This document shows positions 24,201 through 30,200 of a stretch of DNA of 64,000 nucleotides, one piece after another. The stretch lies in assembly GCF_000026545.1 (NCBI RefSeq), contig NC_011601.1. The stretch is one strand, 5' to 3'. The position numbers are program-made. This DNA comes from Escherichia coli O127:H6 str. E2348/69 (GTDB lineage: Bacteria > Pseudomonadota > Gammaproteobacteria > Enterobacterales > Enterobacteriaceae). Positions within the stretch are counted from its first letter, which is position 1, and every line of letters starts with the position of its first letter.

Positions 24201-27200
24201 GTGGAGTGTTTCCCGACTGATTTTCATCTGTCTTCCTTTTTAACGACGGTGTGAAGCATGACTGCAATTAACATACAGGGAAAATATCTGGATTATGTGA
24301 TCCAGACAGGCAAAAAAATATAGTTAGAATTTATTTGATAATCTTCGTGCTTTTAACCTGGTTTTTAAAACAACCATGCTTATTAAAAAATAACGCGTAA
24401 TAGTCTGGCGGTTATTTGAATTCTTTTGTTAATAATCCACGTGTGATATTCATCACCTTATTTACTCGTTGTCATCGATACCGTAATCGCCACATTAACA
24501 CTGCTCGTGCAATTGCCATGGGTGCAATTTTTAAGGAGTTGTTATGATCCACGCCTTTATTAAAAAAGGGTGTTTTCAGGATTCGGTCAGTTTAATGATT
24601 ATTTCACGAAAACTCAGCGAATCAGAAAATGTTGATGATGTTTCCGTAATGATGGGTACGCCCGCCAATAAAGCGTTATTAGATACTACAGGTTTCTGGC
24701 ATGACGATTTTAATAACGCCACGCCGAACGATATTTGCGTGGCAATTCGTAGCGAAGCGGCGGATGCGGGGATCGCGCAGGCGGTTATGCAGCAGCTTGA
24801 AGAGGCGCTAAAACAACTGGCGCAGGGTTCAGGCAGCAGCCAGGCGTTGACGCAGGTGCGTCGCTGGGACAGTGCCAGTCAGAAATTACCCGATGCCAAT
24901 CTGGCGCTGATTTCAGTGGCTGGTGAGTATGCGGCGGAGCTGGCGAACCAGGCGCTGGATCGCAACCTCAACGTGATGATGTTCTCCGATAACGTCACGC
25001 TGGAAGATGAAATCCAACTTAAAACCCGCGCGCGGGAAAAAGGCTTGCTGGTGATGGGGCCAGACTGCGGTACGTCGATGATTGCCGCCACGCCGCTGGC
25101 TTTTGCTAACGTGATGCCGGAAGGCAACATTGGCGTCATAGGCGCTTCCGGTACCGGGATTCAGGAGCTGTGCTCACAGATTGCGCTGGCAGGGGAGGGA
25201 ATTACTCACGCGATTGGTCTTGGCGGGCGCGATCTCAGCCGTGAAGTGGGCGGCATCAGTGCGCTAACGGCGCTGGAAATGCTCAGTGCAGACGAGAAAA
25301 GCGAAGTGCTGGCATTTGTTTCAAAACCACCTGCCGAAACTGTGCGTCTGAAAATTGTTAATGCCATGAAAGCAACTGGCAAAACGACGGTGGCGCTGTT
25401 TTTAGGTTATACCCCGGCGGTGGCCCGCGACGAGAATGTCTGGTTTGCCTCCTCGCTGGATGAGGCCGCTCGTCTGGCTTGTCTGCTTTCACGCGTCACT
25501 GCGCGACGTAACGCGATAGCGCCTGCCAGCAGCGGATTTATTTGCGGTTTGTATACCGGCGGTACGCTGGCTGCTGAAGCGGCGGGATTACTTGCCGGAC
25601 ACCTTGGCGTGGAAGCCGACGATACCCATCAACATGGCATGATGCTGGACGCCGACGGACATCAGATCCTCGACCTGGGCGATGATTTTTACACCGTCGG
25701 GCGTCCCCATCCGATGATCGACCCGACCTTACGCAACCTGTTAATTGCCGATCTCGGCGCTAAACCGCAAGTGCGCGTGTTGCTGCTTGATGTCGTGATT
25801 GGCTTCGGTGCGACCGCCGATCCTGCCGCCTCGCTGGTGAGCGCCTGGCAAAAAGCCTGTGCCGCGCGTTCAGACAATCAACCACTGTATGCCATTGCCA
25901 CGGTGACAGGCACTGAACGTGACCCGCAATGCCGCGCGCAGCAAATCGCCACGCTGGAAGATGCGGGGATCGCGGTAGTGAGTTCGCTACCGGAAGCCAC
26001 CTTGCTGGCGGCGGCGTTAATTCATCCGCTCTCGCCTGCCACACAGCAACACACACCGTCATTACTGGAAAACGTCGCCGTGATTAACATCGGATTACGC
26101 AGCTTTGCGCTGGAGCTACAAAGCGCCAGCAAACCGGTTGTGCATTACCAATGGTCGCCAGTCGCCGGCGGCAATAAAAAACTGGCTCGTTTATTAGAAC
26201 GTTTGCAATAAGGGGTTCCCATGTTTACATCAGTGGCGCAAGCCAATGCTGCGGTTATCGAACAAATTCGTCGGGCTCGTCCACACTGGCTGGATGTGCA
26301 ACCGTCTTCTTCACTTATCAGCGAACTAAACAAGGGCAAAACACTGCTTCACGCCGGGCCGCCAATGCGCTGGCAGGAGATGACCGGACCCATGAAAGGT
26401 GCATGTGTGGGCGCATGTCTGTTCGAAGGCTGGGCGAAAGATGAAGCGCAGGCGCTGGCAATACTGGAGCAGGGGGAAGTGAACTTCATTCCTTGTCACC
26501 ATGTGAATGCTGTCGGGCCAATGGGCGGTATTACTTCTGCCAGTATGCCGATGCTGGTGGTCGAGAACGTGACCGACGGCAACCGGGCGTACTGCAACCT
26601 CAACGAAGGTATCGGCAAAGTGATGCGTTTTGGCGCTTACGGCGAAGATGTCCTGACTCGCCATCGCTGGATGCGCGATGTGTTAATGCCAGTATTAAGC
26701 GCGGCGCTGGGGCGCATGGAGCGCGGTATCGATCTCACGGCAATGATGGCGCAGGGCATTACCATGGGCGATGAGTTCCATCAACGCAATATTGCTTCCT
26801 CAGCACTGTTAATGCGTACGCTGGCCCCACAAATTGCTCGCCTCGATCATGATAAACAGCACATTGCGGAAGTGATGGATTTCCTCAGCGTGACCGATCA
26901 GTTCTTCCTCAACCTCGCGATGGCCTACTGCAAGGCGGCGATGGATGCTGGCGCGATGATCCGCGCAGGCAGCATCATTACGGCTATGACCCGCAACGGC
27001 AATATGTTCGGGATTCGGGTAAGCGGGCTGGGTGAACGCTGGTTTACTGCGCCTGTAAACACTCCGCAAGGTCTGTTTTTCACCGGCTTCTCGCAGGAGC
27101 AGGCGAACCCGGATATGGGCGATAGCGCGATTACCGAAACCTTTGGTATCGGAGGTGCGGCAATGATCGCAGCGCCTGGCGTAACGCGCTTTGTCGGTGC

Positions 27201-30200
27201 GGGTGGCATGGAAGCGGCCAGAGCGGTATCTGAAGAGATGGCGGAAATTTACCTTGAACGCAATATGCAGTTGCAGATCCCCGGCTGGGATTTCCAGGGT
27301 GCGTGCCTGGGGCTGGACATTCGTCGCGTGGTAGAAACCGGCATTACGCCACTCATCAATACCGGTATCGCCCATAAAGAGGCGGGGATCGGGCAGATTG
27401 GCGCAGGCACCGTGCGGGCACCGCTGGCGTGCTTTGAGCAGGCGCTGGAAGCACTGGCTGAAAGCATGGGGATTGGTTGAGGAACGCACAATGACGATCA
27501 TCCATCCTCTACTTGCCAGCCGTAGCGCACCGAATTATCGCCAGTCCTGGCGGTTAGCGGGAGTGTGGCGGCGGGCGATTAACCTGATGACGGAAAGCGG
27601 CGAACTGTTAACGCTGCATCGTCAGGGGAGTGGTTTCGGCCCCGGCGGATGGGTGCTTCGCCGCGCGCAATTCGATGCGTTATGCGGTGGATTATGCGGC
27701 AATGAACGACCACAGGTTGTGGCACAAGGGATTCGCCTCGGGCGTTTCACGGTTAAACAGCCACAGCGTTATTGTTTGCTACGTATTACGCCGCCTGCGC
27801 ATCCTCAAGCGCTTGCCGTTGCATGGATGCAACGCGCGGAGGAAACCGGGCTTTTCGGGCCACTGGCATTGGCGGCAAGCGATCCGCTGCCTGCTGAATT
27901 ACGCCAGTTTCGTCACTGTTTTCAGGCCGCGCTCAATGGCGTTAAGACCGACTGGCGGCACTGGCTGGGTAAAGGCCCCGGATTAACGCCAAGTCATGAT
28001 GACACGCTGAGCGGAATGCTGCTGGCGGCCTGGTATTATGGCGCTTTAGATGCGCGCTCCGGTCGCCCGTTTTTTGCCTGTTCCGACAATCTTCAACTCG
28101 TTACCACTGCGGTGAGCGTCAGTTATTTACGTTATGCCGCGCAAGGATATTTCGCCTCGCCACTCCTGCACTTTGTTCATGCTCTGAGTTGCCCGAAACG
28201 TACCGCAGCGGCGATCGATTCGCTGCTGGCGCTGGGGCATACGTCAGGGGCCGATACGCTGCTGGGGTTCTGGCTTGGCCAACAATTATTACAAGGAAAA
28301 CCATGAAAACACTGGTTGTGGCTCTTGGGGGCAACGCCTTACTCCAGCGCGGTGAGGCGCTGACGGCAGAAAATCAATATCGCAATATTGCCAGTGCTGT
28401 ACCCGCGCTGGCGCGCCTGGCCCGTTCTTATCGGCTGGCGATTGTTCACGGCAACGGACCGCAGGTGGGGCTGCTGGCGTTACAGAATCTGGCGTGGAAA
28501 GAGGTAGAACCGTATCCGCTGGATGTACTGGTGGCGGAAAGCCAGGGGATGATTGGCTATATGCTGGCGCAGAGCTTGAGCGCACAGCCGCAGATGCCGC
28601 CTGTCACGACGGTGCTGACGCGCATTGAGGTTTCGCCTGATGATCCGGCGTTTTTACAGCCAGAGAAGTTTATCGGTCCGGTTTATCAGCCAGAAGAACA
28701 AGAGGCACTGGAAGCGGCTTACGGCTGGCAGATGAAACGTGATGGTAAATATTTACGCCGGGTGGTGGCGTCTCCGCAACCGCGTAAAATTCTCGACAGC
28801 GAAGCCATCGAGTTGTTGCTCAAAGAGGGGCATGTGGTGATTTGCAGTGGCGGCGGCGGTGTGCCTGTGGCGGAAGACGGGGCAGGGAGTGAAGCGGTGA
28901 TTGATAAAGATCTCGCCGCTGCGTTGCTCGCCGAGCAGATTAATGCCGATGGACTGGTGATCCTCACCGATGCTGATGCGGTATATGAAAACTGGGGAAC
29001 GCCGCAGCAACGTGCCATTCGCCATGCCACACCGGATGAGTTAGCGCCATTTGCCAAAGCCGATGGTTCGATGGGGCCGAAGGTAACGGCGGTGAGTGGC
29101 TATGTCAGAAGCCGTGGTAAACCCGCGTGGATTGGGGCGTTATCGCGGATTGAAGAGACGCTGGCGGGCGAAGCGGGGACTTGTATTTCGCTGTAGTGAT
29201 GGGCACCAGGCAATTGGCACATCTAGCCTGATGCGATGCTGGCGCGTCTTATCAGGTCTACAGGCGGTGTCGGAACGGTAGGCCGGATAAGGCGTTCACG
29301 CCGCATCCGGCAATCGGCACACCATGCCTGATGCGATGCTGGCGCATCTTATCAGGCCTACAGTCGGTGTTGGAACGGTAGGCCTGATAAGGCGTTCACG
29401 CCGCATGCGGCAAGAAAATGAGCATCAATTAACTGAACTTACTCTGCGCCCACATCACGCCGCTGGCATACTCCGGCGGCAGCAGTGGGATTAAGGCTTC
29501 CAGCGTCGCGGTCAGACGCGATGTGTCGCTGTCGGTCAAATTCAAATGCCCCACTTTACGGCCCGGACGGACTTCTTTGTCGTACCAGTGCAGATGCACA
29601 AGCGGCAGTTTCAGCCAGTCATAATTCAGATCGCTACCAATCAGATTGATCATCACCGACGGATTATTCACTACTGGTTGCGGTAACGGCAGATCGGTAA
29701 TTGCCCGCAGATGTAGCTCAAACTGGCTGATGCTGGCACCGTTTTGTGTCCAGTGCCCACTGTTATGCACACGCGGAGCCAGTTCGTTGATCAGCAGACC
29801 TTGTGGGGTGACAAAACACTCCATTGCCATCACGCCTACATAGCTCAGCTCCTGCATAATCGCCGACAACATCTCTTCAGCTTGCGCCTGTTGCTGTGCG
29901 TTGGCCTGCGGGAAAGCGACGCTGGTGCGCAAAATGCCGTCCTGATGCAGGTTATGCGTCAGCGGATAAAACACGGTGCTGCCATCAAAACCGCGCGCGC
30001 CAACCAGCGACACTTCACCAGAGAAGTTTATGCCCTGCTCGACAATACATTCGCCGTAGCATTCAGCCGGTAACTGTTCGGTTTCAGCGGCGCGTAAACG
30101 CCATTGACCGCGTCCGTCATAGCCACCAGTGCGGCGCTTAACAATCGCCAGCTCACCTAAACGATCAAACACCGCAGGCCACTCGCTGCGTTCGGCAAGT

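Follow-up and report, generated by a model that had tools for sequence, protein, structure and literature searches.

The question raised by this locus was whether the fdrA-ylbE-ylbF-ybcF operon gives Escherichia coli O127:H6 E2348/69 an ATP-yielding catabolic branch that K-12 lacks. The operon was analysed in a 64,000-nucleotide stretch of contig NC_011601.1 (the window), which came from this EPEC strain and was 100% identical to the E2348/69 records. The ORF list and the RefSeq annotation revealed that all four genes were intact on the + strand with zero internal stops. Three of them encoded the subunits of oxamic transcarbamylase, namely fdrA (allF; 24544..26211, 555 aa, ATG..TAA), the uninterrupted ylbE (allG; 26221..27480, 419 aa, ATG..TGA) and ylbF (allH; 27491..28306, 271 aa, ATG..TGA), and the fourth, ybcF (allK; 28303..29196, 297 aa, ATG..TAG), encoded a catabolic carbamate kinase. 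The first-pass annotation had described four complete, tightly packed genes at 24544-29196 with ylbF and ybcF overlapping by ATGA, and both points held. These limits ran exactly from the start of fdrA to the stop of ybcF, the spacers were 9 nt (fdrA-ylbE) and 10 nt (ylbE-ylbF), and the start codon of ybcF lay on the stop codon of ylbF in a 4-nt overlap at 28303..28306 (+ strand; CC-ATGA-AA), with the junction sequence GGAAAACCATGAAAACACTGG and an identical arrangement in K-12. Such spacing is consistent with co-transcription of the four genes in E2348/69. Shine-Dalgarno-like purine runs preceded the starts of fdrA (aaggag), ylbE (aagggg), ylbF (gaggaa) and ybcF (aaggaa). In the ORF list, ylbF and ybcF also appeared in longer forms with TTG starts (at 27398 and 28189, respectively); K-12 and the full-length NCBIfam models agreed with the annotated ATG of each gene.

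Comparison with K-12 MG1655 showed that its allFGHK genes (b0518, b4572, b0520, b0521) had the same order, the same individual lengths, the same spacers and ATGA overlap, the same 316-bp upstream spacer, and the same divergent allDCE and convergent purK neighbours. The gene order of E2348/69 was allS, then allE-allC-allD divergent from fdrA-ylbE-ylbF-ybcF, then convergent purK, as in K-12, and the all regulon (allS, allA, allR, gcl, hyi, glxR, allW, allB, ybbY, glxK, allE, allC and allD) was annotated as intact. The E2348/69 operon differed from that of MG1655 in 15 substitutions in the AllS/ArcA segment and in a downstream spacer, presumably of REP/BIME type, that was 38 nt longer, with the reading frames unchanged. 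The proteins were 97-99% identical to those of K-12, with 12 amino acid differences in FdrA, five in YlbE, four in YlbF and three in YbcF, and the coding DNA was 97.4% identical. The published gain-of-function substitution D296Y was not among the FdrA differences, D296 being wild type in E2348/69. The dN/dS values against K-12 were 0.12 (fdrA), 0.07 (ylbE), 0.06 (ylbF) and 0.04 (ybcF), and strong purifying selection on the coding genes implies that they are expressed and used. The operon was found in 5,423 of 5,426 complete E. coli genomes, with a coverage of at least 80% in 5,407.

The supposed contrast with K-12 depended on ylbE, which the first-pass annotation had taken to be frameshifted there. 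In NC_000913.3, MG1655 ylbE (b4572, YP_009029994.1) was an intact CDS of 1260 bp encoding 419 aa. Its alignment with ylbE of the window, which the first-pass annotation had proposed as the check, was collinear and in frame, with 27 nucleotide and 5 amino acid differences and no indel. That annotation had named an identical K-12 frame as the outcome that would overturn it, and since the alignment showed the same frame and no indel, the contrast with K-12 was rejected. The notion of a frameshift traces to the old reference and the W3110 record. The three-way alignment of E2348/69, MG1655 (NC_000913.3) and W3110 placed the site in a GGGGG run at 26472..26476 (+ strand; ylbE nt 252-256), which was GGGG in the W3110 record (NC_007779.1, 2006). 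The ylbE of that record was 1259 bp long and differed from the NC_000913.3 version by one G less in this run and a silent A/G difference at nt 114. The old-reference pseudogene (W3110 NC_007779.1 and, per the literature, MG1655 U00096.2) thus had the same locus and neighbours as the window but carried GGGG and A114 in place of GGGGG and G114. The 5-G, G114 form of the window was common to the NC_000913.3 version and 5,413 other records, and five G were present in resequenced MG1655, C600, J53, ER1709, ME8067 and every other K-12 derivative seen. In a survey of 5,417 complete E. coli records, which covered the K-12-type 4-G lesion only, the 4-G form appeared in four, the W3110 record and three MG1655 derivatives (the CIT/LIM/CAR records). 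A widespread natural 4-G allele was rejected on this count, all four records being K-12. The three CIT/LIM/CAR records placed fdrA at 545904-547571, exactly the coordinates of the W3110 record, and because of this match they were probably assembled by reference guidance on the old reference. According to PMC4404585, the old MG1655 reference differs from MG1655 stock cultures at both nt 114 and the G-run. PMC3045373 describes an intact, “ancestral” ylbE in the K-12 strain NCM3722, and the EcoGene 3.0 report announces that minor sequence errors of U00096.2 were to be corrected in U00096.3 (PMC3531124). The frameshift attributed to K-12 ylbE comes from a G-run counted one G short in the MG1655 reference used before 2013, and the W3110 record retains this error.

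AllFGH (FdrA-YlbE-YlbF) has been identified as the oxamic transcarbamylase (OXTCase), and the purified K-12 enzyme was active in the reversible conversion of oxamate and carbamoyl phosphate to oxalurate and Pi, with Km and Vmax measured and no CoA in the reaction as given in Table 5; deletion of allF, allG or allH in MG1655 blocked oxamate formation (PMC11326118). Catabolic carbamate kinase activity was demonstrated for the K-12 YbcF protein, and RT-PCR showed that the four genes are co-transcribed in MG1655 (PMC9843812). The pairing of an oxamate carbamoyltransferase with a carbamate kinase, which the first-pass annotation had given as a proposal, is now experimentally established (PMC11326118, PMC9843812). 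The enzymology and genetics came from K-12, mostly from MG1655, and at 97.8-99% protein identity the same enzyme activities, co-transcription and regulation would be expected in E2348/69. In the pathway, AllD, encoded divergently just upstream, oxidises ureidoglycolate to oxalurate, AllF-AllG-AllH converts oxalurate and phosphate to oxamate and carbamoyl phosphate, and AllK (YbcF) transfers the phosphoryl group to ADP to give ATP, NH3 and CO2. The operon thus supplies the last steps of the “oxamate branch” by which allantoin is broken down anaerobically. In K-12 a single mRNA for the four genes arises from the allD-allF spacer, and AllS and ArcA turn its expression on only when oxygen is absent and allantoin present. 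Pathways of the arginine deiminase type are built in the same way, a catabolic transcarbamylase providing carbamoyl phosphate from which carbamate kinase makes ATP (PMC9843812, PMC11326118). Unlike the classical transcarbamylases (ATCase PyrB, OTCase ArgF/ArgI and YgeW), AllFGH has no transcarbamylase-fold domain: a Pfam search (E <= 0.001) detected neither the carbamoyl-phosphate-binding nor the Asp/Orn-binding domain of OTCase/ATCase in the three subunits, in agreement with PMC11326118, and matched only CoA_binding/Ligase_CoA, AllG and AllH. AllFGH also needs three genes, unlike other transcarbamylases (PMC11326118). At the level of single proteins, NCBIfam NF004760 covered residues 1-555 of the 555 of AllF/FdrA (1032 bits against a cut-off of 433), AllG/YlbE matched Pfam PF06545 “AllG” (325.8 bits, E 1.5e-97), AllH/YlbF matched PF11392 “AllH” (102.9 bits, E 1.9e-29), and AllK/YbcF matched the NF006926 equivalog (620.7 bits against 416) together with TIGR00746 arcC and Pfam AA_kinase. 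Residues 82-555 of E. coli FdrA correspond to PDB 3DMY, and a homologue of YlbE has a structure deposited as an “uncharacterized protein” (PDB 3CLQ); a search for a related solved structure found none for YlbF.

Taken together, we put a probability of about 0.95 on the reading that E2348/69 carries an ordinary allele of the standard conserved allFGHK operon, which is intact here as it is in nearly all E. coli, MG1655 among them. The first-pass suggestion of a functional ATP-yielding oxamate branch in E2348/69 that K-12 lost with a frameshifted ylbE appears highly improbable. NC_007779.1 and the three MG1655-derivative records do annotate ylbE as a frameshifted pseudogene, and translation of the 4-G version ends after about 86 codons. 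Against this stand the intact gene of NC_000913.3, the five G in every other K-12 derivative seen, the probable origin of the CIT/LIM/CAR records from the old reference, and the indel itself, at which MG1655 stocks are reported to differ from the old reference (PMC4404585), a reference that was later corrected (PMC3531124). MG1655 also forms oxamate from allantoin in an allG-dependent manner, and the purified active enzyme contained a 419-aa AllG whose gene had been cloned from MG1655 DNA (PMC11326118). The knock-outs, the RT-PCR and the recombinant enzyme all came from MG1655. Equally improbable is the view that FdrA is an acyl-CoA synthetase and that the operon serves a function other than oxalurate phosphorolysis, even though RefSeq names the protein “acyl-CoA synthetase FdrA”, the Pfam CoA_binding and Ligase_CoA domains were found in it, and the closest proteins of solved structure are succinyl-CoA synthetase alpha chains. 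Residues ~110-260 of FdrA aligned with the succinyl-CoA synthetase alpha / ATP-citrate lyase family (E 1e-11 to 1e-3) and the homology to the alpha subunit ended at about residue 262, whereas FdrA has roughly double the length of that subunit and scored far under the cut-offs of the SucD models (NF004230, 53.1 bits against 336; TIGR01019, 46.9 against 353). The demonstrated reaction is also a different one, catalysed by purified AllFGH with a measured Km and Vmax and written in Table 5 with no CoA, and the loss of oxamate formation on deletion of any of allF, allG or allH speaks for the same function (PMC11326118). Judged by these alignments and scores, FdrA is only a distant relative of the succinyl-CoA synthetase alpha subunit. 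Characterisation of the operon, together with that of the enzymes and regulators, dates from 2021-2025, and the E2348/69 copy is typical and of small value as a discovery. The useful outcome is a correction, namely that ylbE is not a K-12 pseudogene; strain comparisons or arguments that build on old-reference records lead to the wrong inference that K-12 lost the oxamate branch.

A further alternative concerns regulation, since an intact operon may be regulated differently in the E2348/69 lineage if the segment that binds AllS and ArcA has diverged. In K-12, allFGHK is activated by AllS and ArcA, and AllS and phosphorylated ArcA bind allFp in EMSA (PMC12535856). The divergent allD-fdrA (allF) intergenic control region of the window (24228..24543, 316 bp) had the K-12 length and aligned with no gap, and its 15 substitutions all fell between -203 and -83 of the fdrA ATG. 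Mapping from Figs 3 and 6 of PMC12535856 placed the counterpart of the -203/-144 AllS fragment at 24341..24400 (+ strand), with 10 substitutions and a core, TTTTAACCTG[G/A]TTTTTAAAA, that differed at one base. The counterpart of the -142/-83 fragment for phosphorylated ArcA, mapped from the same paper, lay at 24402..24461 (+ strand), with 5 substitutions and an identical stretch GGTTATTTGAATTCTTTTGTTAATAAT. The AllS/ArcA promoter region was thus present and collinear, and AllS would be expected to bind at 24341..24400 in E2348/69 as well, but regulation like that of K-12 is only assumed, because 15 of 121 positions differed from the K-12 EMSA fragments. A simple pattern scan for a sigma-70 promoter before fdrA gave hits at or below the expectation from shuffled sequence. 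What favours altered regulation is the confinement of the substitutions to the 121 bp of the two EMSA fragments (divergence 12.4% within these, 2.6% in the coding sequence and 0% over the remaining 195 bp; hypergeometric P ~3e-7), one of them, at -183, falling in the middle of the motif predicted for AllS. On the other side, the ArcA core was identical, the arms of the AllS palindrome (TTTTAA...TTAAAA) and allS itself were intact, and the purifying selection on the coding genes again implies use of the operon. The promoter allele was common to 911 records and the coding allele to a similar number (904), and the spacers of other genomes formed a continuum of 95.3-100% identity. Because of this frequency and continuum, the differences look like ordinary spacer polymorphism, and a promoter segment peculiar to E2348/69 was rejected, since the allele is shared and intermediates exist. 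Different regulation in this lineage is accordingly judged unlikely, and it is quite doubtful that the clustering reflects a retuning of both divergent promoters specific to this lineage. Such retuning, if true, would mean that E2348/69-type strains induce the ATP-yielding oxamate branch under other conditions or at another level than K-12.

Downstream of the operon, a pattern scan beyond ybcF found no canonical intrinsic terminator, the matches being at or below shuffle expectation. Repeat analysis of the spacer between the convergent ybcF and purK revealed two tandem palindromic units of ~100 nt at 29203..29402, which form a direct repeat at 89% identity (29203-29302 and 29303-29402) and contain inverted repeats. 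We take these units to be of the REP/BIME type from the motifs recognised in them, GCCTGATGCG and GCCGGATAAGGCG. The K-12 version of this repeat spacer was 38 nt shorter in total.

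The 4,653-bp interval carrying fdrA, ylbE, ylbF and ybcF (allF, allG, allH and allK, respectively) was 100% identical to the chromosome of the enteropathogenic strain E2348/69 (O127:H6), with window position N equivalent to 480000+N on NZ_LT827011.1. Of the complete E. coli genomes searched (5,426), 5,423 contained the interval, with at least 80% of it covered in 5,407; it is core E. coli DNA. The four genes are located on the plus strand at 24544-26211 (fdrA, 555 aa), 26221-27480 (ylbE, 419 aa), 27491-28306 (ylbF, 271 aa) and 28303-29196 (ybcF, 297 aa). The ORF list, the RefSeq annotation and our own translation agreed for each gene, and translation of all four revealed no internal stops. 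Spacers of 9 nt (fdrA-ylbE) and 10 nt (ylbE-ylbF) separate the first three genes, ylbF and ybcF overlap by the ATGA at 28303-28306, and a Shine-Dalgarno-like run precedes all four start codons. The identity, integrity and synteny of the operon genes were established in E2348/69, and the first-pass annotation, which had described four intact, closely packed genes with an ATGA overlap, was exact to the base. The dN/dS values against K-12 were 0.12 (fdrA), 0.07 (ylbE), 0.06 (ylbF) and 0.04 (ybcF), which points to purifying selection.

The same annotation had taken ylbE to be frameshifted in K-12 and suggested that K-12 may lack a functional ATP-yielding branch, but ylbE (b4572) is an intact CDS of 1,260 bp in the current MG1655 reference, NC_000913.3. 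Alignment with the window gene showed 27 substitutions, five amino-acid changes and no indels; the two genes are identical in frame, the outcome that the annotation itself had named as incompatible with its claim. The “frameshifted” ylbE of 1,259 bp was found in the W3110 record NC_007779.1 (3582-4840 of L003, our handle for this record). A three-sequence alignment placed the lesion in a G-run at ylbE nt 252-256 (window 26472-26476), which reads GGGG in W3110 and GGGGG in MG1655 and E2348/69, and the second ylbE difference in W3110 was a silent A/G at nt 114. Both changes have also been reported in the literature, as points at which MG1655 stock cultures depart from the old reference (PMC4404585). 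An intact, “ancestral” ylbE is present in K-12 NCM3722 (PMC3045373), and EcoGene 3.0 noted a few sequence errors in U00096.2, with correction due in U00096.3 (PMC3531124). The claimed contrast with K-12 is an error that traces to an obsolete reference sequence. When a 90-nt probe with the 4-G form was searched for exact matches, only four of 5,417 records carried it (W3110, CIT, LIM and CAR), whereas the 91-nt 5-G form was present in resequenced MG1655, C600, J53, ER1709 and ME8067. CAR, LIM and CIT (NZ_CP026026-28) derive from MG1655 and come from work on essential-oil resistance; their fdrA coordinates are those of the W3110 record, and we take them to be assemblies guided by the old reference. 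The 4-G ylbE in these four records is probably a legacy of that reference rather than biology, and such records could mislead strain comparisons.

The oxamate carbamoyltransferase and carbamate kinase functions, which the annotation had given as a proposal, have now been proven by experiments in K-12. Deletions of allG, allH and allFGH were made in MG1655, and the genes were cloned from MG1655 DNA, with allG listed as 1,260 bp and 419 aa in Table 5 (Kim & Kim 2024, PMC11326118). Purified AllF-AllG-AllH showed oxamic transcarbamylase (OXTCase) activity; its Km was 1.3 mM with carbamoyl phosphate and 36.9 mM with oxamate as the substrate (PMC11326118). RT-PCR in MG1655 detected one transcript for all four genes, and purified YbcF had catabolic carbamate kinase activity (Kim et al. 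2022, PMC9843812). Operon expression required both allantoin and anaerobiosis and depended on AllS and ArcA; in the region upstream of allF, AllS bound the -203/-144 fragment and ArcA the -142/-83 fragment (Kim & Kim 2025, PMC12535856). Oxamate flux was raised by the FdrA variant D296Y (PMC8550087), and residue 296 in E2348/69 is the wild-type D. From these demonstrations we infer equivalent activities and regulation in E2348/69: AllD would oxidize ureidoglycolate to oxalurate, AllFGH would phosphorolyse oxalurate to oxamate and carbamoyl phosphate, AllK would convert carbamoyl phosphate and ADP to ATP, NH3 and CO2, and AllS and ArcA would turn the operon on. The allantoin pathway gene set is complete in this strain by its annotation: allS, allA, allR, gcl, hyi, glxR, allW, allB, ybbY, glxK, allE, allC and allD carry no pseudogene flags.

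The 316-bp allD-fdrA spacer was collinear with that of K-12, and all 15 substitutions fell within -203 to -83 (window 24341-24461, 121 bp; hypergeometric P ~3e-7), the exact span of the published AllS and ArcA EMSA fragments (24341-24400 and 24402-24461). Divergence from K-12 was 12.4% in this segment, compared with 0% in the other 195 bp of the spacer and 2.6% in the coding region. Such clustering might suggest altered regulation relative to K-12, which we consider quite improbable; the ArcA core stretch and the AllS palindrome arms were kept between the two strains. The E2348/69 spacer allele was common to 911 records (identity of at least 99%) and the coding allele to 904, and spacer alleles in the remaining genomes formed a continuum. 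We read the differences as ordinary spacer polymorphism.

All of FdrA was covered by its match to NCBIfam NF004760, and the protein contained the Pfam CoA_binding and Ligase_CoA domains. YlbE and YlbF matched PF06545 and PF11392, now named in Pfam “Oxamate carbamoyltransferase subunit AllG” and “AllH”, respectively, and YbcF matched the carbamate kinase equivalog NF006926. The Pfam search found no classical transcarbamylase domain in FdrA, YlbE or YlbF; AllFGH has a succinyl-CoA-synthetase-like subunit and no transcarbamylase fold. E. coli FdrA itself is PDB 3DMY, a YlbE homologue is PDB 3CLQ (deposited as “uncharacterized protein”), and the structure search found no solved structure related to YlbF. 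Some newer ylbF annotations also use the oxamate carbamoyltransferase name, whereas FdrA (24544-26211) is still “acyl-CoA synthetase” in RefSeq for these records, which is behind the 2024 characterisation.

Downstream of the operon, between the convergent ybcF and purK, 29203-29402 contained two tandem palindromic units of ~100 nt (89% identical), which from their motifs we take to be of REP/BIME type; the K-12 version of this spacer is 38 nt shorter in total. A pattern scan found no canonical intrinsic terminator 3' of ybcF. Between ybbP and mnmH, where K-12 presumably carries the rhsD element, the annotation places a DinQ-type type I toxin on a small ORF (6499-6654), followed by a transposase of the IS481 family (6866-7912). 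Adjoining a tRNA-Arg gene, 35914-36983 contained nothing but fragments: part of an integrase gene, frameshifted, and part of a tail-fibre assembly gene. These look like what is left of a prophage that decayed at a tRNA attachment site, and ompT, ybcH and nfrA come next. The type I toxin gene hokE (60015-60404) adjoined entD and fepA and was overlapped on the opposite strand by a frameshifted small ORF.
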